Assembly: GCA_035529395.1 (NCBI GenBank)
Contig: DATKWT010000091.1
Coordinates: 135-64,134, forward strand
Length of the DNA stretch: 64,000 nt
From: Dehalococcoidales bacterium
Lineage (GTDB): Bacteria; Chloroflexota; Dehalococcoidia; Dehalococcoidales; Fen-1064
Direction of reading: 5' to 3'
Part shown: piece after piece, positions 7,998-46,340 of the stretch
Position numbering within the stretch: the stretch's first letter is position 1
How the letters are laid out: each line of letters begins with the position of its first letter
Notes under the pieces: model-generated
What the model was told of the DNA's origin: nothing
The model's input: only the letters and a program-made list of their open reading frames with translations
Databases searched by the model: none
Translations under genes and position numbers: made by a program

Positions 7998-8013
7998 AAG
8001 GGGATAGTGTGCC

Positions 8014-8196: not shown

Positions 8197-8262
8197 AGCA
8201 TCAGCCAGTGAGGCAGGTTGTCTCACCCGGGATAAGGGAAGTCTGAAAGGAGGAATAAAGTC

Positions 8263-8499
8263 GTGCCGCTCTATGACTTTGAATGCCGGGATTGTGGTAG
8301 AGTATCAGAGGTGCTGCTTCGTATTTCCGGGCAGGTAGCTCATTGTTCTGAGTGTGGCAGTGCCAACGTGGAACGGCTTATCTCGGCATCATATATGATA
8401 AAGACGGATGTGTCAGGCCCGGGTACCACCTGCTGCGGACGGAGCGAGCGCTGTGAGGCGTCTCCTTGCTCCACCGGAGATGTGTGCCGCAGAGGTTGA
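8263..8499 (+). CDS. FmdB-family zinc-ribbon protein with a Cys-rich tail
   Basis: MPLYDFECRDCG...CSECG plus the C-terminus TTCCGRSERCEASPCSTGDVC. GTG start lies 8 nt after AGGAGG. Confidence 0.7.
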   Translation: MPLYDFECRDCGRVSEVLLRISGQVAHCSECGSANVERLISASYMIKTDVSGPGTTCCGRSERCEASPCSTGDVCRRG

Positions 8500-8626
8500 A
8501 GGAATGGTCCTGCTTAACCTTGACCCCGGGAATCCCGCGAGGGGAAACGGGTGGCAGTGAAAATACAGGTTAAACCGGAAAACCGGAACACGAGTTAATA
8601 TTGATTGGAAGAATTTGGAGGTGCCT

Positions 8627-14919: not shown

Positions 14920-16848
14920 ATGTCTCAAGAATTCAAGCATCTTTTTTCACCCATCAAGCTGGGGCCGATGACAGTACGCAATAGAATAGTCTCATCTTCC
15001 CACGCCACCAATTTCCACTCAGTGGTCGGCCCTATCACCGATAGGGCGTTCCATTACTATTTATCCAAGGCGAAGGGTGGGTTGGGGCTCATCGTGACCC
15101 AGTTCACTGTACCTATGGCGCTTCAGAGTGATGCTGCGATCCCCACCTATAGGAATCTAGCCGACGCCATTCACCAGGAGGGTACGAAGCTGATGGTGCA
15201 GCTGGTGCTCCCCGGGAAGTTTGGGAGTTCAGATACATATGGGGGAACGCTTTCATCTTCATCGCCAATACCAGCCACGACTCCCTACAGGGGTACGGGG
15301 GAAGTGCCTCGCCAGATGGAAATCGAGGAGATAAAGGAGGCAGTCCAGGGATTTGCTGATGCCGCCAGGAGGGCATGTGAAGCCGGTCTTGACGGCGTGG
15401 AAATAAGTCTTGCCGTCGGTTTCCTGTTCTCCCAGTTTATATCGCCTGTCTTTAATCAGAGAACCGACGAATACGGTGGCAGCCTGGAGAATCGACTCCG
15501 TTTTCCTATCGAGACCATCGATGCCGTCAGAGATGCTGTCGGGAAGGACTTCGTTGTTGGTATCAGGTTGACCGGGGACGAGTTTCTCGAGGGTGGCATT
15601 GACCTGGAACTGGCCAAACTGAATGCCCAGAGATTAGAGGCCACCGGGAAGCTGGACTACATCAGTATCTGTGCCGGCACTTTCTTTAATCCGGAAGCAC
15701 ATATTCCTCCCATGTATTTTCCTCTGGGATGTTTTGTTTACCTTGCTGCTGCCATTAAGGAGGCGGTGAATCTACCGGTGATGACGGTGGGTAGAATAAA
15801 TGATCCGGTGCAGGCGGAGAAAATCCTGGCGGACAATCAGGCAGACCTGATAATCATGAATCGGGCTACTATCTGCGACCCGGAAATGCCAAAGAAGGTC
15901 CAGGAGGGCAGGCTTGATGAAATACGTAAGTGTACCGGCTGTAACGAAGGTTGTCTCGGCAGGTGGGTCCAGGGTCTTCCCATAACCTGTGCCTATAATC
16001 CTGAGGTGGGTCGGGAGAGTGAGTTTGCCATAACGGAGGCACCCGTCAAGAAAAAGGTAATGGTCATCGGTGGGGGTGCCGCCGGTCTGGAGACAGCCCG
16101 GGTGGCTGCGTTGAGGGGTCACCAGGTATCCCTGTACGAAAAGGGAAGCGAATTGGGTGGGCAACTGAATATAGCGGTCAAAGCCCCGATGAGGGATGAT
16201 TTCCTCGAGGTACCTCGTTACTATACGCACCAGATGAAGCTTCTGGGAGTGGACGTCAACCTTGAAACCGAGGTAACTTCGGAAATGGTTGAGTCAATAA
16301 GTCCGGATGCCGTGGTGGTGGCAACGGGTTCCCTGCCCTATCTAACAACAATACCAGGTGTTGAGGGAGCCAATGTTGTCGAGGTGCGCGAGTTGCTTCA
16401 GGAGAAGGTAGAGGCGGGGCAAAACGTGGTCGTTATTGCCGGAGAACAGCATATCCAGGCGTTGAGTGCGGCTGATTTCCTGGCGGAGCAGGGGAAGACG
16501 GTAGAGCTACTGACTGATGGGCTCTATCCCGGTGCGTTGCTCGACCCGGCGACGCTAATGGTTGTATTGCCCAGACTGCTGGCCAGGGGGGTTAAGATAA
16601 CCCCCAGCACTGGAGTGAAAGAGATAACAGAAAACGCAGTAGTTGTCTTCAATGCTTTCACCAGGGAGGAGAGAAGAATCGAGGGTGTCGATACGATGGT
16701 AATTGCCACCGCTGGCAGGGCCGACGACAGGCTCTATCGTGCTCTAAAGGGCAAAGTGCAGGAGCTGCACGCGGTTGGTCACTGTATATCGCCACGCAAG
16801 ATGATTACCTCGGTTCTCGATGGAGCTATGGTGGGACGGATGCTGTAG
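14920..16848 (+). CDS. NADH:flavin oxidoreductase of the 2,4-dienoyl-CoA reductase / enoate reductase family
   Basis: An OYE-like N-terminal half, the 4Fe-4S motif CTGCNEGC..(11)..C, then VMVIGGGAAGLE (GxGxxG) and a second dinucleotide-binding fold. Confidence 0.85.
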   Translation: MSQEFKHLFSPIKLGPMTVRNRIVSSSHATNFHSVVGPITDRAFHYYLSKAKGGLGLIVTQFTVPMALQSDAAIPTYRNLADAIHQEGTKLMVQLVLPGKFGSSDTYGGTLSSSSPIPATTPYRGTGEVPRQMEIEEIKEAVQGFADAARRACEAGLDGVEISLAVGFLFSQFISPVFNQRTDEYGGSLENRLRFPIETIDAVRDAVGKDFVVGIRLTGDEFLEGGIDLELAKLNAQRLEATGKLDYISICAGTFFNPEAHIPPMYFPLGCFVYLAAAIKEAVNLPVMTVGRINDPVQAEKILADNQADLIIMNRATICDPEMPKKVQEGRLDEIRKCTGCNEGCLGRWVQGLPITCAYNPEVGRESEFAITEAPVKKKVMVIGGGAAGLETARVAALRGHQVSLYEKGSELGGQLNIAVKAPMRDDFLEVPRYYTHQMKLLGVDVNLETEVTSEMVESISPDAVVVATGSLPYLTTIPGVEGANVVEVRELLQEKVEAGQNVVVIAGEQHIQALSAADFLAEQGKTVELLTDGLYPGALLDPATLMVVLPRLLARGVKITPSTGVKEITENAVVVFNAFTREERRIEGVDTMVIATAGRADDRLYRALKGKVQELHAVGHCISPRKMITSVLDGAMVGRML

Positions 16849-18776: not shown

Positions 18777-18805
18777 TTGATTTAGCCAGTACCGATTGGT
18801 ATACT
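18777..18805 (+). promoter_or_regulatory. Promoter candidate TTGATT-17 nt-TATACT for the CoA-transferase genes
   Basis: Hexamers and spacing read directly from the sequence. Confidence 0.5.
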
Positions 18806-18891
18806 CGTGGGTAACCCCACCCCAGGGAAGACCGTCCCCATGTGCGGGACGGTTTCTGACATATTCCCACGGAACGGAGAAGGGAGAGACT

Positions 18892-20088
18892 GTGGAGCAG
18901 GCTCTGTCCGGCGTCAGGGTACTGGATGTAACTCACTACATTGCCGGGCCCTACTGCACCAAGCTGCTCGCCGACTATGGCGCCGAGGTGGTCAAGGTGG
19001 AAAGGCACGGTACCGGTGACGGCGCCAGAAGGATTGGCCCCTTCTACAAGGATGACCCTCATCCGGAAAAGAGTGGCCTGTTTCTCTACCTGAACACCAA
19101 CAAACGCGGTGTCACTCTGAACCTGAAGTCTGAGACCGGGATTAGAATATTCCGGGAACTGGTGGTAGACGCTGACATCCTCGTGGAGAACTTCAGCCCC
19201 AGGGTGATGGCGTCTCTGGGTCTGGACTATGAGAGTCTGGAGAGGATAAACCCCGGTCTGGTTATGACCTCCATTTCCAACTTCGGGCAGACCGGTCCCT
19301 ACCGAGACTACAAGGCCACCGAGATTGTCGCTGATGCTATGGGTGGCTGGATGAGCATCATCGGCCACCCGGACCGCGAGCCACTTAAACCCGGCGGGAA
19401 CCAGGCGCAGTTTGTCAGCGGTCTCTTCGGATGTGTCGGTACAATGACCGCTTTCCACGGTCGGGAGTTGACCGGAGTCGGACAACACGTGGACATATCC
19501 CTGATGGATGCCGTGCTCTACATCCAGATGAATATTACGCAAATATATCACTACCACGAGAGGGTTACCAGCAGAATCGGCAATATGGTACTGCCCCCAC
19601 CCGGTTCGATACTACCCTGTCGGGACGGCTATATCGGGGCTATCGCCGTTACGAACAGCCAGTGGCAATCCCTCTGTGAGTGGATGGGGAAACCGGAGCT
19701 AGCCAGCGACGAGAGGTTCCTTACCAGAATCCACCGCACCGAGAATGTGGACGAGCTTATTGCTACGTTAATTCCCTGGCTACTCGAGCATGACCAGGAG
19801 GAACTGCTGCGCGAAGCGCAGAAGCGAAGGATTCCTTTTGGAATCCCGGCTGGGGCCGACCGGTTACTCAACTCTGAGCATCTCAACGAGAGAGGCTATT
19901 TCGTAGATGTTGAGCATCCCGTTACCGGAAAGGTCAGGTATCCCGGTGCCCAGTTTGGATTGGGTGATTTGCCCTATGAATTAAAGCCGGCGCCGCTGCT
20001 GGGTGAGCATAACGAGGAAATCTACTGCCATCGTCTCGGTTATAATAAAAAAGACCTGGTGAGGCTGCGAGAGACGGGCGTTATTTGA
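18892..20088 (+). CDS. Family III (CaiB/BaiF) CoA-transferase, paralogue 1
   Basis: LSGVRVLDVTHYIAGPYCTKLLADYGAEVVKVE is the typical N-terminus. Start taken at the GTG after GGAGAAGGGAGAG. The track's TTG at 18796 would sit inside the promoter. Confidence 0.85.
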   Translation: MEQALSGVRVLDVTHYIAGPYCTKLLADYGAEVVKVERHGTGDGARRIGPFYKDDPHPEKSGLFLYLNTNKRGVTLNLKSETGIRIFRELVVDADILVENFSPRVMASLGLDYESLERINPGLVMTSISNFGQTGPYRDYKATEIVADAMGGWMSIIGHPDREPLKPGGNQAQFVSGLFGCVGTMTAFHGRELTGVGQHVDISLMDAVLYIQMNITQIYHYHERVTSRIGNMVLPPPGSILPCRDGYIGAIAVTNSQWQSLCEWMGKPELASDERFLTRIHRTENVDELIATLIPWLLEHDQEELLREAQKRRIPFGIPAGADRLLNSEHLNERGYFVDVEHPVTGKVRYPGAQFGLGDLPYELKPAPLLGEHNEEIYCHRLGYNKKDLVRLRETGVI

Positions 20089-20120
20089 GCAATTCCACGC
20101 CTCGCGGAGGGATAGAGAAA

Positions 20121-21407
20121 ATGCCTGGACTGCCGCTGGAAGGACTGCGGGTACTTGACCTCTCCATGTGGTTTGCCGGACCCATGGGCAGCCGGTTGCT
20201 GGCCGACATGGGGGCTGAGGTAATCAAGATAGAATCGCTGGGACACATCGACCCGTGGCGAGGGCCTGCCAGGGTTACACCAATACTTATTGAGCGGATG
20301 CCGGAGTTGGCATCCGTTGAAAAGCCGTACAATCGTTCGGCCGGCTTCAACCTGCAGAACCGGAACAAGTATGGAATCACACTCGACCTTCGTACCGGGC
20401 GGGGCAAAGAGGTGTTCATGAAGCTGGTTGAAGTCAGTGACGTTGTCCTGGAGAACTATAGCCCCAGGGTCATGGATAGCCTGGATATTGATTACCCGGT
20501 ACTCACTGAAATCAACCCCCGGCTCATTATGATGTCATTGCCGGCCCTGGGCAGGACCGGCCCGGACAGGGACCATATTGCCTTCGGGCAGACGATAGAC
20601 TGCATGAGCGGTATGGCGTATCTCACCGGTTATCCTGGTGAAGAGCCGATGTTGCAGAGCGGGCTGTCCTACGGCGACCCACTGTCCGGGATGAACGCCG
20701 CTTTTGCTGTACTGTCAGCCCTGCACTACCGCCGGCGTACGGGCCGGGGAATGCATATTGACCTCTCACAGGTAGAAGGTCTTATCTCGTTCAACGCGGA
20801 TTCCGTGATGGACTACACGATGAACGGACGGGTACGTGAGCGAATGGGAAACCGCCATCCCTCGATGGCGCCCCACGGCTGCTATCGCTGCCGGGGTGAA
20901 GATAACTGGGTGGTGATTGCCGTCTCTTCAGACGCAGTCTGGGAGCGGTTCTGTCAGGCGCTGGAGCAGCCGCCCTGGACAGAGGATACCCGGTTCTCAA
21001 ACCTGCCGGGCAGGTACCGCCACCAGGATGAGCTGGACAGGCTGATAGAGGTCTGGACTGTGCAGCATGACCACTACGATGTAATGCGCATCCTGCAGCG
21101 GGCAGACGTCCCCGCTGGGCCGGTGCTCAACGCCAGGGAACTGACCGAGGAGCCGCATCTAAACGAACGGGGCATCTTTGAAACAGTCACCCACCCCGAA
21201 GCGGGCACGCATCCCTATATCGGCATGTACGCCCGGTTCTCAAAGACACCGGGGAGTATAAGGATGCCCGCTCCGTGCCTCGGTGAGCACAACCGCTATG
21301 TTTTCGGGGAAATACTCGGCATGTCTGAGGAGGGGATTTCGGAGCTGGAAGAGCTCGGTATAATCGGCACCGAAGCCCTGCCGGAGCAACAGGGGGGCAT
21401 GTTTTAG
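20121..21407 (+). CDS. Family III (CaiB/BaiF) CoA-transferase, paralogue 2
   Basis: LEGLRVLDLSMWFAGPMGSRLLADMGAEVIKIE. ATG lies 8 nt after GGAGGG. Confidence 0.85.
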   Translation: MPGLPLEGLRVLDLSMWFAGPMGSRLLADMGAEVIKIESLGHIDPWRGPARVTPILIERMPELASVEKPYNRSAGFNLQNRNKYGITLDLRTGRGKEVFMKLVEVSDVVLENYSPRVMDSLDIDYPVLTEINPRLIMMSLPALGRTGPDRDHIAFGQTIDCMSGMAYLTGYPGEEPMLQSGLSYGDPLSGMNAAFAVLSALHYRRRTGRGMHIDLSQVEGLISFNADSVMDYTMNGRVRERMGNRHPSMAPHGCYRCRGEDNWVVIAVSSDAVWERFCQALEQPPWTEDTRFSNLPGRYRHQDELDRLIEVWTVQHDHYDVMRILQRADVPAGPVLNARELTEEPHLNERGIFETVTHPEAGTHPYIGMYARFSKTPGSIRMPAPCLGEHNRYVFGEILGMSEEGISELEELGIIGTEALPEQQGGMF

Positions 21408-21609
21408 TACCTGGTTGCAGAAATACCTAGTATGTTCCGCGGGGTGAGACCCTTCGGCTTCGGCCTGCTGGCAAAGCCAGCAGGTAAGTTCAGGGTGACA
21501 CGCCGTTGGCATGTCATTCTTGAGCAACACGCCGTTGGCTTCAGTGGCACGCCACTCGCCTCAGTGGCGCAGAATCTGAATGTTGCGCGGATTTGTGCAA
21601 CCAGGTACT
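21406..21609. mobile_element. MITE-like non-coding repeat, copy A (204 bp)
   Basis: 19-bp terminal inverted repeats AGTACCTGGTTGCAGAAAT / ATTTGTGCAACCAGGTACT with 1 mismatch. Both ends are homologous to copy B at 26925-27055. It carries extra internal segments, including the hairpin at 21464-21484. The left TIR supplies the AG of the upstream TAG stop. Confidence 0.7.
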
Positions 21610-21691
21610 GGAGATGGTATATAATTCACGTGGGTGCGGAACCATAGTGTAGAATAACCAATGCATTAAAAAGAAGATTGGAGAAATCCAG

Positions 21692-23002
21692 ATGAAGGCT
21701 GTACTGGAAGGTATCAAGGTTCTGGACGTTTCCCAGGTGGCCGCTGTGCCCATGTGTGCCCGGCATCTGGGTGACTTCGGTGCGGATGTGATTCACGTGG
21801 AGCACGCCACCAGGGGCGATTCATGGAGGGTGCTTCAGGCGGGATATGGTGGCGGTGCCGGTGTGCCCTCTGAAATCAACTACAACTGGGAAGCCTTCAA
21901 CCGTAACAAGCGCAGTCTGGCGGTGGACATTTCCCATGAGTCGGGCAGGGACATAATATACAAGCTGGTCAAGGAGACGGACGTTTTCGTAACCAACCTG
22001 CGTCTCCCAGAGAAGGAGAAACACGGGGTGAGCTATGATGCCCTGCGCCGTATCAACCCGAAGCTTATCTACGCTTGCCTGACCGGGCATGGCAAAAAAG
22101 GGCCCAACCGTGAGACCCCGGCCTATGATACCACCGTCTACTGGGGGAGGTCGGGGGTCACCAGCACTCTGACCGTCCCCGGACTCTCGGGACCGGCCCC
22201 ACGCCCGGCGTTTGGTGATGTTGTTGCCGGTCTCGGGCTTGCCTTTGGCATTGTGATGGCCCTCTACCACCGTGACAAGACCGGGATAGGCCAGGAGATT
22301 GACACCTCCTTATTGCATACCGGCATCTACCAGTTGACCTTCGACGTTTCGGCTGCTCTGGCTACCGGGCAGGATATCGTGGAGTACAGGCTCAATCCCC
22401 CCGAGGTGCTGGATGAAGAGTTGATGAAGCGCCGGAACGAGCTCATTGGTGAGGCCCAGGAAGCAATAGTACGTCTCGGCGAGTTCTACCGGGAGAACTC
22501 ACCCAATCCCCTGGCGAATCGTTACACCACGAAAGACGGCAAGGTAATCGGTTTCAATGCGCTGCAGTCGGACCGGTTCTGGGCGGAGTTCTGCCGCGTA
22601 ATCGAGCGTCCTGACCTTGAGGAAGACCCGAGGTTTATATCAAGTGAGGCCAGGACCGAGAACAAAGGTGAGCTATACTCTATCCTGCGGGACGCCTTTA
22701 TCACCAGGACTCTCGATGAATGGACACCTCACCTAGTCGGGTTGCCGTACGCTCCCATACAAAACACCGTGGATGTTGTCAATGATGTCCAGGCAGAGGC
22801 AAACAACATGTTCCTGCCCGTTGACCACCCTACATACGGACCGATGAAGGTAATCGCCAATCCCGTAAATCTCAGTGAGACCCCGGCCACATACCGACTC
22901 CCGTCTCCGGAGTTCAGCCAGCATACAGAGGAGATTCTCCTGGAACTGGGCTATAGCTGGGAGGATATCGCGCGACTCAAAGAAGAAGGGACCATAGCCT
23001 GA
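21692..23002 (+). CDS. Family III (CaiB/BaiF) CoA-transferase, paralogue 3
   Basis: LEGIKVLDVSQVAAVPMCARHLGDFGADVIHVE. GGAGAA RBS. Confidence 0.85.
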   Translation: MKAVLEGIKVLDVSQVAAVPMCARHLGDFGADVIHVEHATRGDSWRVLQAGYGGGAGVPSEINYNWEAFNRNKRSLAVDISHESGRDIIYKLVKETDVFVTNLRLPEKEKHGVSYDALRRINPKLIYACLTGHGKKGPNRETPAYDTTVYWGRSGVTSTLTVPGLSGPAPRPAFGDVVAGLGLAFGIVMALYHRDKTGIGQEIDTSLLHTGIYQLTFDVSAALATGQDIVEYRLNPPEVLDEELMKRRNELIGEAQEAIVRLGEFYRENSPNPLANRYTTKDGKVIGFNALQSDRFWAEFCRVIERPDLEEDPRFISSEARTENKGELYSILRDAFITRTLDEWTPHLVGLPYAPIQNTVDVVNDVQAEANNMFLPVDHPTYGPMKVIANPVNLSETPATYRLPSPEFSQHTEEILLELGYSWEDIARLKEEGTIA

Positions 23003-23833: not shown

Positions 23834-24094
23834 CTATTCGTCTTTAATACCCAAGTCAGTAACGTAGTCTACGGCGTTCTGAACGGTGAGAATCTTCTCG
23901 GCGTCTTCGTCAGGTATCTCGACCTTCTTGTCCGGAGAGCTGAACTCCTCCTCAAGAGACATTACCAGCTCTACCAGGTCCAGAGAATCGGCGCCCAGGT
24001 CATCGACGAAACTGGACGAAGGCAGCGCATCGCTCTCACCAACGCCGAGTTGCTCCGCGACTATCTTCCGTACGCGCTCTAGTATAGTTGCCAC
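23834..24094 (-). CDS. acpP: Acyl carrier protein
   Basis: [20 protein letters not shown] contains the phosphopantetheine-attachment Ser motif (DSL). Confidence 0.9.
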
Positions 24095-24118: not shown

Positions 24119-24529
24119 TCATCTGCTGACGAGAGTGCTCACTGCACCCAGGACCCCATTCACGAACCTTGAGGAACTGTCACTGCCAAATGTCTTGGCG
24201 AGTTCAACTGCCTCATTAATGGCTACCTTGACCGGGACCTTACTCTCCAGTAGCATCTCATATATTGCCAGTCTCAGTATGCTTCTGTCAACTACCGAGA
24301 GTTGCTCCAGTGGCCAGGCAGAGGCAAAACGCCGTATGTGCTCGTCAATTTTCTCCTGGTTTCGTGTGATGCCATTGACGAGTTCCCGGGCAAAGTCCTT
24401 GTTCATCTCCGAGAGGTCGCTTTCAGCCAGGAGATGGGCCAGGGCCTTTTCCGCATCATGCCCGGCGGAGCTGATTTCGCACAGGGCCTGGAAGGCGGCC
24501 ATTCTTGCTCTACGCCGTGCTCCCGGCAT
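24119..24529 (-). CDS. nusB: Transcription antitermination factor NusB
   Basis: ARRRARMAAFQAL, RLAIYEM, VAINEAVELAKTFG and FVNGVLG align by eye with E. coli NusB. Confidence 0.85.
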   Translation of the reverse strand: MPGARRRARMAAFQALCEISSAGHDAEKALAHLLAESDLSEMNKDFARELVNGITRNQEKIDEHIRRFASAWPLEQLSVVDRSILRLAIYEMLLESKVPVKVAINEAVELAKTFGSDSSSRFVNGVLGAVSTLVSR

Positions 24530-24614
24530 ATCGGTAGTCCCCTCGTCTGTCTGTCTTACTAACTGACTTTAGCAGAAGCGCAGTGCGAGGTCAATTCTGA
24601 TATCTCTACCCAAT

Positions 24615-24646
24615 AGAAAGGGGGCAGGATTCAAACCCTGCCCCCT
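24615..24646 (-). terminator. Rho-independent terminator after fabG
   Basis: Perfect 10-bp stem AGGGGGCAGG / CCTGCCCCCT with an 8-nt loop, followed on the minus strand by TTTCTATT. Confidence 0.65.
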
Positions 24647-24650
24647 CTAT

Positions 24651-25403
24651 CTACATCTTCCCCAGGGAAATCCCCCCGTCAACCGTGAGCACCTGCCCTG
24701 TGATATAGTGTGCTTCTTCTGAGGCGAGGAACGCAACCGCCTCGGCGACATCTCGGGGAGTGCCCAGGTAGCCGAGCAGTATCTGGTCGGCCATGGCCTG
24801 CCTGCGCTCTTCGGGTAAGTGCTGGGTCATCGTAGTGTCTATGAAGCCGGGAGCTACCGCGTTGGCCGTAATCCCGCGGGAGGCTACTTCCTTGGCGACG
24901 GTGCGGGTGAAGCCGATGATGCCTGCCTTCGCCGAGGCGTAATTGGCCTGTCCGGCGTTGCCGATGAGACCGACAATGCTGGCGATACTGACGATTCTGC
25001 CCCAGCGCTGCTTCATCATGGGTCTCAGTACCGCCCGGGTGCAGAGGAATACGCTCTTCAGATTCACTCCGAGCACTTGGTCCCAGTCGTCATCCGACAT
25101 CCGCATTATGAGCTGGTCCCTGGTTATACCGGCGTTGTTTATCAGGATATCGACTTTTCCGTAGTTACTGGTGACAGTCTCTACCATACGGGTGACTTCA
25201 CTTGAATCGCTGATATCGGCGGGAACAACCAGGCTTTGCTGTCCCATTTTCCTGATTTCTTCGGCCACGGCTTCAGCCGGTTCCATATCACCGACGTCGT
25301 TAATGACGACGGTGGCACCGACTTCAGCCAGTTTCAGGGCGATAGCTGCCCCGATGCCGCGGCCGCTGCCGGTGACTATAGCTACCCTATCGGAAAGGTC
25401 CAT
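24651..25403 (-). CDS. fabG: 3-oxoacyl-[ACP] reductase (SDR)
   Basis: TGSGRGIG, NNAG and YASAKAG catalytic motifs, in a fab gene context. Confidence 0.85.
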   Translation of the reverse strand: MDLSDRVAIVTGSGRGIGAAIALKLAEVGATVVINDVGDMEPAEAVAEEIRKMGQQSLVVPADISDSSEVTRMVETVTSNYGKVDILINNAGITRDQLIMRMSDDDWDQVLGVNLKSVFLCTRAVLRPMMKQRWGRIVSIASIVGLIGNAGQANYASAKAGIIGFTRTVAKEVASRGITANAVAPGFIDTTMTQHLPEERRQAMADQILLGYLGTPRDVAEAVAFLASEEAHYITGQVLTVDGGISLGKM

Positions 25404-25613
25404 TTGTTACTCCTTGAACTCTATTTCCTGGCTCGGGGCGGCTATGAGGGTTGCCCGAGACGTTGCGTACTATTAGTATAGTACATTGCGACTTCGGATT
25501 CACCCGTTGGTTGATAACCGGTTTCAATACTGACTGCCACTGCGAGCGAAGCGAAGCAATCCGGGGTGGAGTGTGAGATTATTTCGGCCGGTCCTATATG
25601 TGCTCAGTGAGCA

Positions 25614-25643
25614 TTGACAGTCTCCGAGTTCAGGCGGTACCAT
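25614..25643 (+). promoter_or_regulatory. Promoter candidate TTGACA-18 nt-TACCAT upstream of the RdhA homologue
   Basis: Hexamers read directly from the sequence. The -10 is weak. Confidence 0.35.
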
Positions 25644-25693
25644 TGTGAGACCTGTGGATGAGTTGTAAGAACGCGTAGAGTTGGAGTGACGAT

Positions 25694-26926
25694 ATGAAGA
25701 GACTGACCCTTGACCAGTGGGAGAAGAAGTATATTGCCGGTACGGTCGAGAGGTTTGACCAGAAGTATCAGATGTTCAACAGGCCGGCCTGGGACCCGGA
25801 GATGAAAGAGTTGCTGGAGGACTGGTCATTCGGTGGCGAAGCCAGGGAGAGACCGGGCTATACTTTGCTTGACCACGCACTGAAACGGGCGAGCTCACGC
25901 ATCACACAGCTAGCGGTGTTCAATATGTACAAGCCCAACCCCAGCCCGGTGACAATGGCAATAACGGCGGCGATGGCAGGTGCATACTCGCGTCGTCAAC
26001 CCATGCCGGAGAAACCTCGTGAGAGGATGAAGATTGATGTCAGTGACTCGGAGGTACTGACGCGTAATGTGAAGAAAGTGGCCCGGTACTTTGGAGCCGA
26101 CCTGGTGGGTGTCTGCCGGCTGGACCGGCGGTTCGTGTATTCACACACCTACGGAGGGAACACATTTGAGGGTGCGCGTGAGTCTGAAGTGGACGCAGAC
26201 GGATCCCGGCCGCAGGAAATACCCGGTGAGTTTCAGTACGCCATAGTCATGGGATTCGAGATGGATTACGACCTCATGAAGTACTTCCCGACCTATGTTG
26301 CCGAAACCACTACGGCAATGGGTTACAGCAGGATGGCCATTGCCAATGCCCACCTGTCCGCCTTCATTCGGGGGCTGGGGTTCAAGACCATTGACTGTAG
26401 CATCAATGATGTTGCCCTTTCGGTACCACTGGCAATGCAGGCAGGGCTGGGTGACATCGGACGGAACGGGATACTGATTACACCACAGTTCGGGCCTCGC
26501 CTGAGGTTGAGCAAGGTGTTTACTGACCTGCCGCTGATTGTCGATACGCCGGTTGATTTCGGGGTCACCGAATTCTGTAAAGCCTGTATGAAGTGTGCCG
26601 AGATGTGTCCATCACAGGCCATTTCCACCGGGGAGAGGACCTCCGAGCCAAACAACGTGTCCAACGTGACTGGTGAAATGAAGTGGTCGATTGACCCTGT
26701 CAAATGCCGTATGCACTGGGGGCGTACGGATAAGTCATGCACCATCTGCGTTGCCTGCTGCCCCTACAATAAGCCGGATACCCTGTTCCACCGGGCGGTC
26801 CTGCGTCTTACCGACTACCTGAGGTGGACGGATTCTCTCTGTGTCCGGATGGACAAATTGCTCGGTTACGGCAGACCGGCCCGGGTAGCGGACTTCTGGG
26901 AGGAGTGGCAGCCCCGGCGGCACTAG
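25694..26926 (+). CDS. Reductive dehalogenase homologue (RdhA-like) without a TAT signal
   Basis: The C-terminal motifs are DLPL..D.PVDFG..EFCKACMKCAEMCPSQAI and W..DP.KC..(9)..CTICVACCPYNKP, the two RdhA Fe-S motifs. The N-terminus MKRLTLDQWEKKY has no RRxFxK. No rdhB-like ORF is adjacent. Confidence 0.85.
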   Translation: MKRLTLDQWEKKYIAGTVERFDQKYQMFNRPAWDPEMKELLEDWSFGGEARERPGYTLLDHALKRASSRITQLAVFNMYKPNPSPVTMAITAAMAGAYSRRQPMPEKPRERMKIDVSDSEVLTRNVKKVARYFGADLVGVCRLDRRFVYSHTYGGNTFEGARESEVDADGSRPQEIPGEFQYAIVMGFEMDYDLMKYFPTYVAETTTAMGYSRMAIANAHLSAFIRGLGFKTIDCSINDVALSVPLAMQAGLGDIGRNGILITPQFGPRLRLSKVFTDLPLIVDTPVDFGVTEFCKACMKCAEMCPSQAISTGERTSEPNNVSNVTGEMKWSIDPVKCRMHWGRTDKSCTICVACCPYNKPDTLFHRAVLRLTDYLRWTDSLCVRMDKLLGYGRPARVADFWEEWQPRRH

Positions 26927-27055
26927 TACTCAGTTGCAGAAACACCATGTAGTATGTTCCGTGGGGTGAGACCCTTCTCTACACTCAGGGTGACGTGCCA
27001 CTAGCCTCAGTGACGCAGAATCTGAATGTTGTGCGGATTTGTGCAACTAGATACC
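26925..27055. mobile_element. MITE-like non-coding repeat, copy B (131 bp)
   Basis: Its left ~60 nt and right ~70 nt are homologous to copy A. It begins in the TAG stop of the RdhA homologue and ends 10 nt from the fabD stop on the opposite strand. Its TIRs are more degenerate (13/18). Confidence 0.7.
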
Positions 27056-27065
27056 AGGGAAGGCG

Positions 27066-28001
27066 TCAGGACTGCTCTGCGAGGGCCTGGACGGCTTCGG
27101 CGTCCCCGATATTCAGCGTCTCCACGCTTCGGTCTATGCGCCTCATCAGGCCGGTAAGAACCCTGCCGGGCCCGATTTCGATGACGCTGGTGACACCGTT
27201 CTCAATCATGTACTCGATGGAACCCTGCCACTGAACGCTGTTGCATAGCTGTTCCAGGAGTTCTGACTTGACTGCCTCCGCAGTGGTCATCGGTCGGGCG
27301 GAAGTATTGGCGATTATGGGTACAGCGGGCTCACGGAAGGTCAGGGTGGGAATAATCTCGGCCATTCCGTCTACGGCGGGCTGCATCAGCGGGGTATGGA
27401 AAGCACCACTCACCTGAAGGGGGATAGCGCGGGATGCACCCTTCTCTTTGGCCAGCTCTACCGCTCTGTCAATATTGTCAGTGGCCCCGCTGATTACCAG
27501 TTGTCCGGGGCAGTTGATATTGGCTAACCGGGTGTCTGTTTCCTGGCAGATGCCGGTCAGTACCGGCTCGTCCAGTCCGATGATTGCTGCCATCGTGCCG
27601 GGTCGTTCCAACCCGGCCTGGTACATCAAACGGCCCCTCTCGCGGGCGAGGTAAACGGTATCGGCGAAGTCAAGCACGGCTGCCGCAGCCAGCGCGGTGT
27701 ACTCCCCGAGGCTATGGCCGGCCACGAAGGTTGGTGGCGGCAGACCCTTGCCTGTTTCCTGGGCCGCCTTCAGGCAGGCAAAGCTCACCGTGACCAGCGC
27801 CGGTTGCGCGTTGACTGTCTTGCGGAGCTCGTCCTCCGGTCCTTCGAAGCAAAGCCCGGAGAGAGAGAACCCCAGCCTTTCGTCGGCCTGTTCAAAAACC
27901 GTTCTCGCTACGGGGTAGCTCTCGTAAAGGTCACGTCCCATGCCGACGGACTGGGAACCTTGCCCCGGAAAGACATAAGCCACTCTCTTTGTATCGACCA
28001 T
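27066..28001 (-). CDS. fabD: Malonyl-CoA:ACP transacylase
   Basis: FPGQGSQ and the GHSLGEY active-site motif. Confidence 0.9.
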   Translation of the reverse strand: MVDTKRVAYVFPGQGSQSVGMGRDLYESYPVARTVFEQADERLGFSLSGLCFEGPEDELRKTVNAQPALVTVSFACLKAAQETGKGLPPPTFVAGHSLGEYTALAAAAVLDFADTVYLARERGRLMYQAGLERPGTMAAIIGLDEPVLTGICQETDTRLANINCPGQLVISGATDNIDRAVELAKEKGASRAIPLQVSGAFHTPLMQPAVDGMAEIIPTLTFREPAVPIIANTSARPMTTAEAVKSELLEQLCNSVQWQGSIEYMIENGVTSVIEIGPGRVLTGLMRRIDRSVETLNIGDAEAVQALAEQS

Positions 28002-28003
28002 TA

Positions 28004-28954
28004 TTAGCCACCTGTCTGCAGGCTTCTGAGGCGCGCTATCACTGCCTCGGCTTCAGCCACCATCTCTTCTATGATTATCCTGACCGGCTTGATTTCATGT
28101 ATCATGCCGGCAATCTGCCCGGCCAGCAGCGAGCCATCGTCGACATCGCCGTCAATCAGACCGAGGTGCATTCTGCCCTCGCCGAACATACTCAGTTCCT
28201 CGGACGAGACCCCGGACTCTTCCAGTGCCAGAAACTGCTCGGTGAGACTGTTCTTCAGACTACGGAGAGGCAGGCTGGTAGTGCGGCCGGTGATGACCGT
28301 TGACCGGTCGTGAGCCTCGAGGACCTTCTGCTTGTAGCCGGGGTGGGCAATGGATTCCTCGCTACAGGCGAATCGCGTCCCGATTTGTACACCCTGGGCA
28401 CCGAGGGCCAGGGCTGCCGCCAGACCACGCCCATCGGCAATACCTCCGGCGGCAATCACCGGTATGCTGACACTATCGACCACCTGGGGCACCAGTGCCA
28501 TGGTCGTCGTTTCCCCGATGTGCCCTCCCGATTCCATGCCCTCGGCGACAATGGCGTCGACACCGGCTTCCTCTAGTCGCTGTGCCGGCCTGACGCCGGC
28601 CACGACCGGCATTACCTTCATCCCTAGCTCTCTGAGAGCGGGCACAAATGCCGTGGGGTCACCGACGCCGGTGGTGACCACGGATACCTTCTCTTGGAGG
28701 ATTATGGCGATAACCTCGTCAGTATACGGCGATGTCAGCGGGAGGTTGATGCCAAAGGGCCTGTCGGTGAGTTCCCGGGTGAGGTGTATCTGCTGCCTGA
28801 CCCAGTCAGGCTGGTAGTAGCCGGCACCGATAATGCCCAGCCCTCCGGCATTGGAGACCGCCGAGACAAGCTCGGCAGTACCGAGGTGAGCCATCCCTCC
28901 CTGGATGATGGGATGCTCTATGCCGATAAGGTCACAGATTACGGTCTTGAGCAC
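28004..28954 (-). CDS. fabK: Enoyl-[ACP] reductase II / nitronate monooxygenase family
   Basis: NMO-family TIM barrel (PIIQGGM, GGLGIIG, EGMESGGH, AAGGIADGRG) in a fab context. Start trimmed to the GTG 7 nt after GGAAGG, because the track's 29044 start overlaps rpmF by 77 nt. Confidence 0.75.
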   Translation of the reverse strand: MLKTVICDLIGIEHPIIQGGMAHLGTAELVSAVSNAGGLGIIGAGYYQPDWVRQQIHLTRELTDRPFGINLPLTSPYTDEVIAIILQEKVSVVTTGVGDPTAFVPALRELGMKVMPVVAGVRPAQRLEEAGVDAIVAEGMESGGHIGETTTMALVPQVVDSVSIPVIAAGGIADGRGLAAALALGAQGVQIGTRFACSEESIAHPGYKQKVLEAHDRSTVITGRTTSLPLRSLKNSLTEQFLALEESGVSSEELSMFGEGRMHLGLIDGDVDDGSLLAGQIAGMIHEIKPVRIIIEEMVAEAEAVIARLRSLQTGG

Positions 28955-28967
28955 GGCCTGGCCTTCC

Positions 28968-29168
28968 CTAGCTGGTCTTTGGTTTCGGGCTCTTGATTTC
29001 GACGACTTCCCGTCCTGCATAGCTGCCGCACGTGTGACAGACATGGTGTGGCAGTTTCGGGCTGTGGCACTGTGGGCAGGTTACCAGGGCTGGGGCGGAC
29101 AGATGGTCATGGCTGCGCCTTCTTCCCCTACGTGCCTTGGTAATCTTTCTCTTTGGCAGGGCTCCCAT
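28968..29168 (-). CDS. rpmF: 50S ribosomal protein L32
   Basis: GALPKRKITKARRGRRRSH and a CPQC...CHTCG zinc ribbon. Confidence 0.9.
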   Translation of the reverse strand: MGALPKRKITKARRGRRRSHDHLSAPALVTCPQCHSPKLPHHVCHTCGSYAGREVVEIKSPKPKTS

Positions 29169-29232
29169 AGTCTACTCGCTTTCTTTCCCCTGACTATGCC
29201 CCTCGGGCATAGTCAGGCATCGTTAGGCATTT

Positions 29233-29754
29233 TCAGGCGTTGTTATCGGCCACGGCCAGTTTGCACAGTCCGCTCCATCGGGGGTCGATTTCCTGCTGTG
29301 GACAGTCACACGGTCCCAGGTTGAGGTTGTGACCGCACGTGGGGCATAGACCGGTGCAATTCTCCTGGCACAACGGCTTCATCGGGATAGCCAGTACTGC
29401 ATACTGGCGTATTGCCTCGGCAAGATCAAGGATATGGTGTTCATCGATGGTAAAGTACCCGGACCGGTCCGGCAGGGACAGTGGTGCTCCGGTGAGCACA
29501 TCCGTTGTGGGATAGTACTCTTCCTCAACATCCAGGGTTAGTGCCAGGGGGCACGAGCGCAGGCAGCGGCTGCAGGTGACTGCAATCTCTGTACGCAGGG
29601 TACCACGAGCCAGGATTCCCCGGTCGGTGCGGACCAGATTGAATCTACCCTCGACATGACTCTCCTGGTTGGCAATATCAACCGTTTCGTCTACATCGTA
29701 GCTTCGTGTTGACCCGATGGCTTCCTTGAGCTGCTGGGAAACGTTTATCTGCAT
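29233..29754 (-). CDS. yceD: YceD/DUF177 family protein
   Basis: Cys pairs CSRCL and CPTCG, a C-terminal DPRW..L, and the conserved position upstream of rpmF. Confidence 0.8.
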   Translation of the reverse strand: MQINVSQQLKEAIGSTRSYDVDETVDIANQESHVEGRFNLVRTDRGILARGTLRTEIAVTCSRCLRSCPLALTLDVEEEYYPTTDVLTGAPLSLPDRSGYFTIDEHHILDLAEAIRQYAVLAIPMKPLCQENCTGLCPTCGHNLNLGPCDCPQQEIDPRWSGLCKLAVADNNA

Positions 29755-30010
29755 CTGTCCTGGCCGCTCCTCCCGGGAACGTGTGGGATACTTCCTCTGG
29801 TGGGTCTGCGGACCTGCCTCATGGTATCCGGCAGTAGTTGTGTGACCAGACTTAATTATAGGCCGTGGGGCTTGTCTGCGTCAACCGGGAAGGGAATGGG
29901 TTACGACGTGCCAGGTTCACTATCTTCCTGGAGAAAGCATTGGTCAACCTCGTGAAGCGCCTCATGCTCATTCGCTCTGAATATTAATACAGGTAGTGGG
30001 AAAAACCCAC

Positions 30011-30038
30011 TTGACAAATAATCCCACCGTGATAGAAT
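30011..30038 (+). promoter_or_regulatory. Promoter TTGACA-16 nt-TAGAAT of the TA module, flanked by GTGGG/CCCAC repeats
   Basis: The repeats run GTGGGaaaaaCCCAC (29995-30009), CCCAC (30023-30027) and GTGGG (30054-30058), bracketing the hexamers. They are candidate antitoxin operators. Confidence 0.55.
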
Positions 30039-30065
30039 GTGTATGTAAGTCAGGTGGGTAGGTAT

Positions 30066-30365
30066 GTGGTGACTATAATAAAGAATGCAGATTTCACGGG
30101 GATAGCCAAGAACGTGAAGCCAGATGCTAAAAGGCGAGTGATTTTACCTCAAGGATTGGTAAGAGAAGGTATCATTTACCACATATATGCCAATAGCTTT
30201 GGGCAAATTGTTTTAGACCCACAAGTAACTATACCTGCATCTGAGGCATGGATATTTGAAGATAAGAGTGCTCTAGCTACGGTTGACAGGGGTATGGTTG
30301 AGTCAGCTAACGGACAAGTAATAAATCGGGGTTCATTCGCAAAATACATAAAAAATGCACCGTAA
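30066..30365 (+). CDS. Putative antitoxin (SpoVT/AbrB-like)
   Basis: A small ORF overlapping the toxin gene by 11 nt. The RRVILPQGLVREG segment resembles the AbrB-type looped-hinge motif. Start is uncertain, because the track's GTG at 30039 abuts the -10. I prefer the GTG at 30066 after AGGTGGG. Confidence 0.5.
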   Translation: MVTIIKNADFTGIAKNVKPDAKRRVILPQGLVREGIIYHIYANSFGQIVLDPQVTIPASEAWIFEDKSALATVDRGMVESANGQVINRGSFAKYIKNAP

Positions 30366-30681
30366 ACTACGTTTTACCCCTACTGCTGATGAGCAACTTG
30401 ACAGAATAGAGAATGACCCTTCGCTAAAAGGTGTCCTCAAGCAAGTCAGAAAAACACTGGGATATCTAGAAACAAACCTTCGAGCTAAGTCTCTACAAAC
30501 CCATGAGTTTGAGTCACTGACAACGCGTTATGGGAAAAAGGTTTTTGAGGCTTATATTCAACAAAGAACTCCAGGGGCTTATAGAATATTCTGGCATTAT
30601 GATCCCGATGAGATAGACAAAAATGGTGAGCGTGTAGCTATCATTACCATAGTAACCATAACCCCACATCCCGAATCCTGA
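30355..30681 (+). CDS. Putative RelE/ParE-superfamily toxin
   Basis: 108 aa with the pattern F...A..QL..I, AYRIFW and a C-terminal ITIVTITPHP, typical of RelE/ParE-fold toxins. A sampled 60-nt stretch is 43% GC. Confidence 0.55.
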   Translation: MHRKLRFTPTADEQLDRIENDPSLKGVLKQVRKTLGYLETNLRAKSLQTHEFESLTTRYGKKVFEAYIQQRTPGAYRIFWHYDPDEIDKNGERVAIITIVTITPHPES

Positions 30682-30690
30682 ACAGCTAGA

Positions 30691-30780
30691 TTACTTCCCC
30701 CACCTGGTTAGCGACGATTTCCTTGCTATTTCCTTACGTTTTTCAGGCGATAACTTTGCAACCTCCTGCTGAGAAATGGG
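30691..30780 (-). pseudogene. Possible gene remnant (29 codons, no start codon)
   Basis: The minus-strand reading frame is PISQQEVAKLSPEKRKEIARKSSLTRWGK*, bounded upstream by TAA. The S/PE.R.EIARK...RW tail recalls small mobile-element-associated proteins. This call is weak. Confidence 0.2.
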
Positions 30781-30937
30781 TTAAGGCAGTGATTTAATAT
30801 TACCGAGAGATATTGATGATGTTGGTGGAGAGAAGGTGAGTGGGGCATTGGTCGCAGGCTTGTCATTGTCTGAGGTTAATCCTTGATGTATTATGGATAC
30901 AGAACCGGAGGAACATGGTAGTTTCAGGTAACCACAA

Positions 30938-43319: not shown

Positions 43320-43964
43320 TTACGACTTCCGCGAATACCGCACCAGTTTCCAGGTGAGGACTTCGCAGAGCACGGTTACGTCCTCGGATTCGAGGTAGTC
43401 TGTAATGTTAGTATCAAACAGCATGTTCATCTGTGGTGCCAGTTCCTCGTCGCCATGCCAGAGAACGAGCGCTATCGGGACGCGATTAAAGCCGTTGATG
43501 ACCACGCCGGTATCTCCCAGGTCAATTTCTGTACCACCCACGACTTTACTGGCTTCCACCAGTAAGTCCGGCTCTCTGCCGAACCGTCTGGTGAGCTGGT
43601 CAGTGGTCCTCTTGGAGAAGGTAGGGAAGTAGACCACACCCCCGGGAAGGTCACGGTAGGTGATGAGCTTACCTGTTGCCGCGGTGCCTCTGGCCTGGGC
43701 AAGATAGCGCAACACCAGGATTTTCTCTCGCAGCGGGAGCTCGTCGGCATCCCCTTCCGGCAGGACGGTGAGGTCCGGGAATGATATGACATAAGGTTTG
43801 CCCAGGTAGTCGACAGTGACGGTAATAGCGGAGTCCGCACTCTCGTACCGGGAGTCGCTGAGGCGGGACTGCTCTTCGAGGTCTGCCGCGGTCAGACGGT
43901 CACGCACAATCCCGAAAGCAACATTCAGGTTATATACTGACCGGTTCTCGTCCACAGGCAGCAC
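43320..43964 (-). CDS. DUF3786-like protein associated with corrinoid/ACS clusters
   Basis: 214 aa with ILVLRYL, ITYRDLPGG..YFPTF..R and LFD.....YL..ED. The family assignment is from memory. GTG start after GAAGGAAG. Confidence 0.55.
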   Translation of the reverse strand: MLPVDENRSVYNLNVAFGIVRDRLTAADLEEQSRLSDSRYESADSAITVTVDYLGKPYVISFPDLTVLPEGDADELPLREKILVLRYLAQARGTAATGKLITYRDLPGGVVYFPTFSKRTTDQLTRRFGREPDLLVEASKVVGGTEIDLGDTGVVINGFNRVPIALVLWHGDEELAPQMNMLFDTNITDYLESEDVTVLCEVLTWKLVRYSRKS

Positions 43965-44015
43965 TGTCTTCCTTCTCTTTGGGAGCCCTGCAGTGGTGGC
44001 ACCCGCTGTAAACCT

Positions 44016-44060
44016 GTGGAGGCCGTCCCCGGTCGGTTATCCCGGGATTGCGGCCTCCAC
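44016..44060 (-). other. Intra-operon hairpin (10-bp perfect stem GTGGAGGCCG / CGGCCTCCAC, 25-nt loop)
   Basis: Read directly from the sequence, in the 128-nt acsE/DUF3786 spacer. Confidence 0.5.
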
Positions 44061-44092
44061 GAATTACCCATACTATCGGAGTGTTGCCGGTA

Positions 44093-44968
44093 CTACACGT
44101 CCAGCCAGGAGTGGGAGTAAAGGACCTGTCCGGTCACCACCCGCACCGACTTGGCGTACTTCGCCTCTTCAGAGTCGAGGGAAGCGAGGTCAGGCATTTC
44201 ACCATCCATTATGCGGTGAATCATGGCGACACGTTCCGACCTTTCACCACGGGCTATCTTAATCAGCTCCGCGTCGAATGCGTCCACTATCGCCGAATGT
44301 ATATTGTATTTCATGAGCATCATCAGGTAAGTGCGGTTGAGGTAGGGGCGGAGTTCGTTTGGTGTACCATTGGAGACATTGGACAGGCCCACTGCTGACT
44401 TGCCGCCAGGAGCAATCTCGTGGAGCATACTCATGAACTCCAGGCAGGGCTTGACCTGGTTCGTATCCACGTTGCTTGCCGGGGTTACGATAGGGTCGAA
44501 CCAGATAGTATCATTGGTAATACCCAACTCGGCAGCTGCCATCATAAGCTCCATGGCAATCATGCTGCGTTCGTCCTCATCTCTCGGCATACCCTCTCGT
44601 CCCCAGAGCAGCCCGATGAAGTCGGCATTATACTTGGTGGCCAGAGGCAGCTCCTCTTCCATCCTGGCCAGGGATATAGAGTTTATTAGCGCACGCCCCT
44701 TGTGGACTTTGAGGCCGGCCTCGATTGCCACGGGATTGGTACAATCGAGTGACAGGGGCATGTCAACTACCTCTTGTACTGTCTTGACTGCCCATTCCAT
44801 CATCTCGTCACCAGCCCTACGGCCAGGCCCGATGTTGATATCGAGGTAGTCCACTCCCGCTTCCTTCATGGCTCTGGCCATCTCCTGGATAGGAGCAGCA
44901 TTTCTCTCCCTGAGAGCCGGGCCGAGTGTCTTAGACATTATGTTGATGTTTTCTCCGATGAGAATCAT
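44093..44968 (-). CDS. acsE: Methyltetrahydrofolate:corrinoid/Fe-S protein methyltransferase
   Basis: Pterin-binding TIM-barrel protein (IGENIN, DYLDINIGP) adjacent to acsC. Confidence 0.85.
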   Translation of the reverse strand: MILIGENINIMSKTLGPALRERNAAPIQEMARAMKEAGVDYLDINIGPGRRAGDEMMEWAVKTVQEVVDMPLSLDCTNPVAIEAGLKVHKGRALINSISLARMEEELPLATKYNADFIGLLWGREGMPRDEDERSMIAMELMMAAAELGITNDTIWFDPIVTPASNVDTNQVKPCLEFMSMLHEIAPGGKSAVGLSNVSNGTPNELRPYLNRTYLMMLMKYNIHSAIVDAFDAELIKIARGERSERVAMIHRIMDGEMPDLASLDSEEAKYAKSVRVVTGQVLYSHSWLDV

Positions 44969-44977
44969 TGCTCCCTC

Positions 44978-46324: not shown

Positions 46325-46340
46325 AGTCGTGACTCCTTTC

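Follow-up and report, generated by a model that had tools for sequence, protein, structure and literature searches.

Why does a homologue of a reductive dehalogenase gene lie inside a fab cluster, what does its product do, and how did it come to be there? These questions are raised by a 64-kb stretch of contig DATKWT010000091.1 from a marine Dehalococcoidales bacterium (the window). A single plus-strand gene, rdhA, stands between fabG and fabD of the window and is antisense to both. Coordinates are those of the window unless a label such as L009 or L128 is given; these labels denote the relatives' loci used in the comparisons. We consider it likely that rdhA encodes a functional cytoplasmic reductase of the RdhA superfamily, which depends on a corrinoid and two [4Fe-4S] clusters and is non-respiratory, and that the gene belongs to an old, vertically inherited cassette in the fab spacer.

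Identity of the RdhA homologue

The protein was assigned by profile, sequence, motif and fold. It scored 229.7 bits against the reductive dehalogenase profile TIGR02486 (cut-off 160.35; E = 7.5e-68) and 67.2 bits against the QueG equivalog profile TIGR00276, which is below the cut-off of 200. The best sequence match in the PDB was PceA of S. multivorans (4uqu, E = 8e-65), with residues 110-403 of the query aligned to 131-437 of mature PceA. This match puts homology to RdhA far beyond chance. Further matches were the PceA of an RDH complex (8q4h, E = 2e-51) and NpRdhA (E = 1e-32).

The first Fe-S motif reads C295-x2-C298-x2-C301-x3-C305-P306 and the second C338...C349-x2-C352-x3-C356-P357. In an alignment of 41 homologues, the eight cluster cysteines, Y211, N238 and R257 were invariant, and R271 was nearly so (at least 90% conserved). 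Y211, N238 and R271 are aligned with Y246, N272 and R305 of PceA, and R271 also falls at K488 of NpRdhA. The AlphaFold model, built with 41 homologues, was confident (pLDDT 84.7, pTM 0.88). The best 36 PDB matches of this model in Foldseek were all RdhA structures, and QueG and MMACHC came after them. PceA ranked first (E = 8.5e-27), followed by 8q4h (TMq 0.78) and NpRdhA (TMq about 0.7). The original prediction, made from the sequence without database searches, had described an RdhA homologue with both Fe-S motifs, and the profile score and the invariant motifs agree with it. Profile score, both motifs, active-site residues and the fold, with its nitroreductase-like corrinoid-binding core and ferredoxin-like domain, all place the protein in the RdhA superfamily (TIGR02486). 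It lies outside the QueG equivalog, and it is not of the NpRdhA/BhbA type, as its 410 residues align only to NpRdhA 345-615.

Export, partners and family

A promoter-like region had been noted ahead of the gene, and a sigma-70-like promoter is predicted there (Table 1). L003, L128 and L089, whose RdhA identities go down to 79%, retain this promoter and the 5' leader, but further upstream their sequences are unrelated. The ATG of rdhA is the first start after an in-frame stop five codons upstream. An in-frame upstream start encoding a twin-arginine translocation (TAT) motif had been named as an observation that would overturn the prediction; it was searched for in 25404-25693, and none is present, since stops occur in all three plus frames. 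The same stops exclude an upstream TAT-encoding exon and a frameshifted leader. The hydrophilic N-terminus of the protein contains neither an RR motif nor a hydrophobic stretch, and no TAT-like motif or transmembrane (TM) segment was found in any of the 120 closest homologues. The protein is therefore predicted not to be TAT-exported.

No RdhB-like gene was found: between 21 and 32 kb there is no small open reading frame (ORF) with two or more TM-like segments, and both spacers beside rdhA are too short to hold one. There was also no anchor-like gene among 88 neighbour proteins of homologues. Regulators of the CRP/FNR, MarR or two-component type are neither adjacent to rdhA nor within the cluster, and Pfam identifies the flanking genes as fabG and fabD. 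The TAT signal, the adjacent rdhB and the associated regulator of a respiratory RdhA are thus all three missing, as had been proposed. No second rdhA or paralogue occurs in the 64-kb window, and no cobalamin riboswitch or other Rfam element reached the gathering threshold anywhere in it. One match to the snoRNA sR30, obtained when 25350-25750 was scanned at E ≤ 1, was treated as chance (13.3 bits against a gathering threshold of 38, E = 0.61).

A search against 5.8 billion proteins returned 1,272 homologues at E ≤ 1e-10. The top 120 share 53-98% identity with the query and are almost all full length, with 390-440 residues (mostly about 400-420). In a library of representatives at 50% identity, 450 clusters matched at E ≤ 1e-30, and by a simple heuristic a TAT-like leader is absent in about two thirds of the nearest 148 representatives. 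In a rough neighbour-joining tree (215-column core, no bootstraps), all members of the query family lack TAT and form one monophyletic clade, which is nested within the PceA-like radiation and far from the outgroup NpRdhA. Lineages with and without a TAT leader are intermingled in this tree, which indicates that leaders are easily gained and lost. The family is common in metagenomes of marine and subsurface Dehalococcoidia and Deltaproteobacteria.

This class of proteins has been reported before. Wasmund et al. (2016) described an RdhA clade 'mostly derived from DEH', without TAT leader and without adjacent RdhB, and proposed a non-respiratory role (PMC4959651). Jochum et al. (2018) predicted cytoplasmic RdhAs in Desulfatiglans single-amplified genomes (SAGs) (PMC6129605), and Liu and Haggblom (2018) found the Tat signal in only 16 of 35 deltaproteobacterial reductive dehalogenase (RDase) A genes (PMC6299228). 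Cytoplasmic 'catabolic' RdhAs are a recognised type (Atashgahi 2019, PMC6797604), and a transcriptome study of 2025 reported expressed RDase genes without TAT motifs (PMC12090745). The gene had been called an orphan. This is right in that rdhB and a regulator are absent, but the rarity it implied was overstated, as the same architecture is the rule among more than 1,200 homologues. The protein is an ordinary member of an already described class in an unusual place.

The neighbours of rdhA at 28 homologue loci were diverse catabolic genes with no common partner, and no electron-donor, anchor or regulator partner was conserved over these loci. The most frequent neighbour family, CoA_transf_3, accounted for only 4 of the 88 neighbour proteins. 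The neighbourhoods include CoA-transferase III, FAD oxidoreductases, MFS transporters, enoyl-CoA hydratases, AFOR and sulfatase. Such settings fit an accessory catabolic role and pinpoint no substrate. Homologues at 55-72% identity have unrelated neighbourhoods and were never found beside fab genes. One arrangement was seen at several loci: a 67%-identical homologue (L004 6383-10883, also L005 and L006) lies in a co-directional series of a sulfatase gene, a 58-aa ORF, rdhA and a CHASE4/HAMP/PAS sensor gene. From this arrangement, the substrates in that lineage may be sulfated or halogenated organic compounds.

These data also bear on whether the protein may be respiratory after all, either on the cytoplasmic side of a membrane complex that has escaped recognition or by TAT hitch-hiking with a partner encoded elsewhere. 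Its core is nearer to the respiratory PceAs than to the catabolic NpRdhA, and the interleaving of leaders in the tree is compatible with this idea. However, a TAT motif is seen in neither the protein nor its 120 closest homologues, rdhB and TM segments are missing, the 28 neighbourhoods share no membrane or quinol-oxidising partner, and the published view of the class is non-respiratory (PMC4959651). We regard a respiratory role as highly improbable.

Alternatively, the protein may be a corrinoid and Fe-S reductase that acts on something other than an organohalide, as QueG does on epoxyqueuosine. The superfamily takes in QueG and MMACHC, no member of the TAT-less clade has been characterised biochemically (PMC4959651, PMC6797604), and the neighbourhoods are those of a general catabolism of organic acids and aromatics (CoA-transferases, enoyl-CoA hydratases, AFOR, sulfatase) and are not halogen-specific. 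However, the catalytic Tyr, Asn and Arg of PceA are conserved family-wide, the protein passes the curated RDH cut-off and falls far short of the QueG one, and identity is 30-32% to PceA against 14-19% to QueG. We consider this alternative unlikely.

In the cytoplasmic dehalogenase that we favour, a soluble low-potential donor (such as ferredoxin or flavodoxin) would supply electrons; the 410-aa protein has no fused reductase domain. The electrons would reach cob(I)alamin by way of the two clusters, and the enzyme would strip halide from a natural organohalide that had entered the cell. Such a reaction would contribute to catabolism or detoxification, or act as an electron sink that conserves no energy, and would not be organohalide respiration. 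The window also carries a complete-looking Wood-Ljungdahl block on the minus strand (43320-56228), with DUF3786, a pterin-binding methyltransferase, both subunits of the corrinoid Fe-S protein (CdhD family), ACS and CODH, and in addition FolD, two CooC-like ATPases and formate-tetrahydrofolate ligase. The corrinoid Fe-S protein of this pathway means that the organism needs corrinoids whether or not it has rdhA. The best reading of this TAT-less and RdhB-less protein is the one originally proposed, a corrinoid enzyme that is cytoplasmic and non-respiratory, yet it is not an unusual one. Three tandem family-III CoA-transferase genes and an Old-Yellow-Enzyme-type flavoprotein gene were also noted 3-10 kb upstream of rdhA (18796-23002 and 14920-16848, both on the plus strand).

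History of the fabD-fabG junction

The gene order of the cluster, the gap of 1.66 kb and the terminator after fabG were all recovered as first described, by ORFs, Pfam calls, tblastn and folding (Table 1). The gap, bounded by the fabG start at 25403 and the fabD stop at 27066, holds a single plus-strand ORF, with spacers of 290 nt on the fabG side and 139 nt on the fabD side. The genes yceD-rpmF-fabK-fabD are parted from fabG by rdhA, and fabG retains its own conserved upstream region. The longest ORF of fabK (start 29044) overlaps rpmF by 77 nt; its true start is probably the equivalent of 28954, as gene-called on an identical contig.

Table 1. Features of the fab cluster, rdhA and the nearby repeats in the window.
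Feature	Coordinates	Strand	Basis or remark
rdhA homologue, 410 aa, cytoplasmic-type catalytic subunit	25694-26926	+	TIGR02486, PceA match, fold model
Sigma-70-like promoter TTGACA-18-TACCAT, predicted	25614-25643	+	Promoter scan 10/12; conserved cassette begins here
Ribosome-binding site GGAG, 7 nt ahead of ATG	25683-25686	+	Read from sequence
Degenerate palindromic repeat, 'GTCATTGCGAGCGAAGCGAAGCAATC' type, core 25541-25561	25527-25625	+	Single copy in window, 0 expected by chance
MITE-like copy A, fuller; terminal inverted repeat CCTGGTTGCAGAAAT, TA-flanked	21410-21605		Directly after TAG stop of CoA-transferase gene
MITE-like copy B, internally deleted, degraded	26929-27050		15-nt imperfect terminal inverted repeats; fills rdhA-fabD spacer
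yceD	29233-29754	-	ORFs, Pfam calls, tblastn
rpmF	28968-29168	-	ORFs, Pfam calls, tblastn
fabK, NMO-type enoyl-ACP reductase	28004-28954 (gene caller) or 29044 (longest ORF)	-	Pfam NMO
fabD, malonyl-CoA:ACP transacylase, convergent with rdhA	27066-28001	-	Pfam Acyl_transf_1
Native fabG upstream region	25404-25522	-	Kept in rdhA-less sister L009; far end is left breakpoint of variable segment
fabG, 3-oxoacyl-ACP reductase, divergent from rdhA	24651-25403	-	Pfam adh_short/KR; 96% identity to L009 fabG
Hairpin and U-tract terminator after fabG	24613-24654	-	13-bp G+C stem, fold z -4.1
nusB	24119-24529	-	ORFs, Pfam calls, tblastn
acpP	23834-24094	-	ORFs, Pfam calls, tblastn; HAD hydrolase comes next

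The FabD loci of 80 relatives were compared with the window. An RdhA match of any length was found in none of them, and in 45 of the 80 fabD is followed directly by fabG, with a gap of 4-375 nt (median 37 nt). These loci support the reading of rdhA as an insertion relative to the ancestral Dehalococcoidales fab order. Among species representatives, the Black Sea genome BS750m-G43 (L009; FabD 95%) is the nearest, and its fabD-fabG spacer is 165 nt. By blastn, window 24652-25514 corresponds to L009 7850-6971 at 90%, and this part together with 27065-29899 aligns at 90-95%; window 25515-27064 is absent from L009, which has about 33 nt in its stead. In L089, a 3-kb ENA contig, RdhA (79% identical) and FabD (82% identical) are convergent, with a spacer of 38 nt. 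Nucleotide homology between the window and L089 starts at the -35 box (25614), stops at the stop codon of rdhA (26926) and resumes at the fabD stop.

The FabD distance tree was (((window,L003),L009),L089),(L010,L011). Synonymous divergence (dS) between the window and L089 was 0.67 for rdhA and 0.89 for fabD, while the fabD dS between the window and L009 was 0.16. The rdhA value is far above that of the window-L009 split, which indicates that rdhA was present before this split. The dN/dS of rdhA was 0.10-0.21. A recent foreign origin was ruled out by composition, as the GC content (0.564), the GC content at third codon positions (GC3, 0.696) and the codon usage of rdhA are those of host genes. 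The claim that rdhA was inserted into the fab operon therefore stood, as none of the 80 relatives carries RdhA there, but the insertion is, from these comparisons, an old event and not a recent one, since L089 shares the arrangement and the two dS values differ so widely. L009 has most likely lost the gene.

On these sequence comparisons, four steps make up the most economical history. First, a cassette of 1.31 kb with promoter and gene (25614-26926) would have been gained antisense at the 3' end of fabD in the ancestor of the window, L009 and L089. The cassette would then have been inherited vertically under purifying selection. The gene would have been lost in BS750m-G43, and MITE-like copy B would have arrived later, in the lineage of the window and L003. 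The flanks would since have gathered differing small palindromic or MITE-like elements and, in one relative (L128), a split permease pair.

In L009 (6937-6971), two direct copies of the 9-nt sequence GTCAGGACT flank 20 nt at the stop codon of fabD, where the window has its 1.55-kb segment. It may be either a deletion scar or a small independent duplication.

A copy of a miniature inverted-repeat transposable element (MITE)-like sequence had been noted at the 3' end of rdhA. This copy B is real and is related to copy A, with 74 nt at 84%. It is bracketed by TA at 26927-8 and 27051-2. Copy A has 15-nt inverted ends, which are paired in a fold of -105.7 kcal/mol (z -6.5). Each copy starts 2 nt after a TAG stop, that of a CoA-transferase gene (20085-21407) and that of rdhA. 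L009 has neither copy, and L089 has no copy B; a 165-nt variant of copy B occurs in L003, and a third, partial member of the family lies at the fabG-side breakpoint in L128. In the fab loci of the 80 relatives, no copy was found outside the window's own species group, and no parent transposase was seen for copies A and B. Both copies are short and noncoding, have terminal inverted repeats, occur as members of a multicopy family and are polymorphic in presence. The empty sites in L009 are not collinear with the window over the last 30-50 nt. Copy B was also considered as a structured bidirectional terminator, but this gained no support, as it folds no better than shuffled sequences (z -0.3 and -1.3) and no terminator-like site was found there.

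The original prediction had further suggested that the mobile repeat helped to bring rdhA to this place. In its strongest form, the repeat would have mobilised or captured the gene recently and in this lineage only. In its favour, copy B lies right next to the stop codon of rdhA, neither rdhA nor either MITE-like copy occurs in L009, the closest reference genome, and the family is polymorphic in presence at three sites (A, B and the partial copy of L128). However, the L089 orthologue adjoins fabD across its 38-nt spacer without any MITE, which indicates that copy B is a later arrival and not the carrier of the gene. The same gene at the same place without repeat scars had itself been named as evidence against a repeat-mediated arrival, and L089 is essentially such a case. 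In addition, the conserved cassette ends exactly at the stop codon, a MITE is present on one flank only while the left flank bears an unrelated repeat type, the composition and codon usage of rdhA are host-like, unlike those of the clearly foreign ORFs at 30039-30681, and its dS of 0.67 far exceeds the 0.16 of the window-L009 split. We regard recent MITE-assisted insertion as very unlikely.

The flanks of the inherited cassette are variable, and the spacer between fabG and rdhA is a hot spot of such change. A left breakpoint at about 25515-25522 is common to the window, L128 and L009, with differing content beyond it. L128 4-52 equals window 25474-25522 at 98%. Beyond the breakpoint, the window has the GTCATTGCGAGCGAAGCGAAGCAATC-type repeat, L128 has the partial MITE followed by the two genes of a split permease, and L009 has the end of fabD. 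Relatives of the GTCATTGCGAGCGAAGCGAAGCAATC-type repeat occur in the fabD-fabG spacers of L014, L053 and L044 and are absent from L009 and L128. The region upstream of rdhA in L089 consists of at least 500 nt of GGAGAGGGGG-type palindromes. In L128 (RdhA 89%), two plus-strand ORFs (209-865 and 871-1377) are the two halves of an ArsP/DUF318-type permease (PF03773/ArsP_1) and end just before the rdhA promoter. The split PF03773 pair was found beside no other homologue examined.

Differing short palindromic families were observed in the fabD-fabG spacers of L012, L014, L027, L028, L036, L044 and L053; examples from Dehalococcoidales are CCCCCTCTCC...GGAGAGGGGG and GTCATTGCGAGCGAAGC...GCTTCG...AATGAC. 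Small intergenic elements seem to collect in the fabD-fabG spacer in general. A larger insertion was seen in L009 between fabG and nusB (7932-8561, minus strand), where about 970 nt carry a 209-aa protein antisense to the cluster. This protein has a signal-peptide-like N-terminus and no Pfam family, and the window has 121 nt at the same place.

One may go further and suppose that the fabG-rdhA-fabD interval is a standing integration hot spot, in which mobile palindromes of small size and cargo genes are exchanged around a resident RdhA, and that the permease pair and RdhA of L128 form an 'import-and-dehalogenate' module, provided that the pair imports a halogenated substrate or exports halide or product. 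This is a quite doubtful proposal. If true, the module would be previously undescribed and would give a first handle on the physiological substrate class of the clade.

The position of rdhA might also be functional, in that the enzyme acts on halogenated acyl chains or that antisense transcription or the divergent promoter controls fabG or fabD. The adjacency of rdhA and fabD persists across about 18% FabD divergence. However, the gene is antisense with its own predicted promoter, the sister genome L009 manages without it, the homologues at 55-72% identity are never beside fab genes, and the fabD-fabG and fabG-nusB spacers gather unrelated insertions in many relatives. We give this explanation almost no credence. 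Because the gene is antisense, self-promoted and absent from the sister genome, and because homologues are never beside fab genes, its fab position appears incidental.

Several points weigh against a non-respiratory reductase in an old, vertically inherited cassette, in addition to the biochemically uncharacterised state of the clade mentioned above. Dehalogenase activity, substrate, electron donor and corrinoid binding are all inferred for the clade, and the absence of a TAT leader leaves room for the protein to associate with a membrane complex from inside, as it may do. For a gain followed by a loss, the evidence is one short contig (L089, 3 kb) and the distance tree of a single protein; a similar pattern would be expected if relatives had exchanged the fabD-rdhA segment through homologous recombination. 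In L094 (RdhA 90%), the upstream sequence is unrelated and AT-rich and the promoter is different. This region was also examined as a possible integration site, and ARAGORN found no tRNA in it.

Outside the cluster, about 955 nt at 29900-30855 have a GC content of 0.41 and a GC3 of 0.33-0.35, compared with about 0.68 in host genes, and are absent from L009. Two overlapping plus-strand ORFs in this segment (30039-30365 and 30355-30681) encode 108 aa each and have no Pfam match. They look like a recently acquired toxin-antitoxin-like pair.

Significance and comparison with known systems

In metagenomes of marine sediments and anoxic basins, few 'dehalogenase' genes are more frequent than those of TAT-less RdhA homologues, and whether and why they dehalogenate matters for the marine halogen cycle. 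Knowledge of the class is unchanged by this locus. It is a clean, intact example, with purifying selection, a predicted promoter and a setting in the core genome of a Wood-Ljungdahl Dehalococcoidales, and it offers a natural presence/absence contrast between the window, with rdhA, and the 95%-identical sister BS750m-G43, without it. These features make the locus a reasonable choice for expression in a heterologous host and for tests by comparison or transcriptomics. This contrast and the permease-rdhA arrangement of L128 are the most useful by-products of the analysis.

Copies A and B resemble TA-flanked MITEs (non-autonomous derivatives of IS630/Tc1-mariner-type elements) and REP-like palindromes in their inverted ends, TA flanks and intergenic sites. 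Hairpin folding and presence/absence polymorphism are also as in typical MITEs; here, only three sites were seen.

QueG is likewise a cytoplasmic enzyme with a corrinoid and two [4Fe-4S] clusters and has the C-terminal half of the fold in common with the query. It differs in that only query residues of about 242-367 align to it, at 14-19% identity. NpRdhA and BhbA from aerobes (4ras, 6zxu) are cytoplasmic, TAT-less and RdhB-less like the query and have the same core fold (TMq about 0.7), and a catabolic role is presumed for them as for the query. NpRdhA differs in its length of about 700 aa, its large extra N-terminal domain, its Lys488 where the query has R271, and its identity of only 23%, and the fused reductase of BhbA is absent from the query.

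The best match in sequence and fold is PceA (S. multivorans 4uqu/4ur3; Desulfitobacterium RDH complex 8q4h), at 30-32% identity. Equivalents of its catalytic Tyr246, Asn272 and Arg305 and both cluster motifs are present in the query. PceA, however, has a 37-aa TAT leader, is exported and is paired with the membrane anchor PceB and with regulators, whereas the query is without partner genes and its N-terminus is about 21 residues shorter than that of mature PceA.

By its shared traits, the protein is likened to the TAT-less RdhA clade of marine Dehalococcoidia (DEH-C11, Desulfobacula toluolica Tol2, 'Smkt-3'; PMC4959651). The RdhAs of this clade and of the Desulfatiglans SAGs likewise combine two Fe-S motifs with the lack of a TAT leader and of a neighbouring rdhB, and a non-respiratory role has been proposed for them. 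The clade described by Wasmund et al. also comes from the same host class (Dehalococcoidia, marine or anoxic), with rdhA as an orphan gene among catabolic genes. Unlike in that clade, the location in the fab cluster is particular to this sub-lineage.

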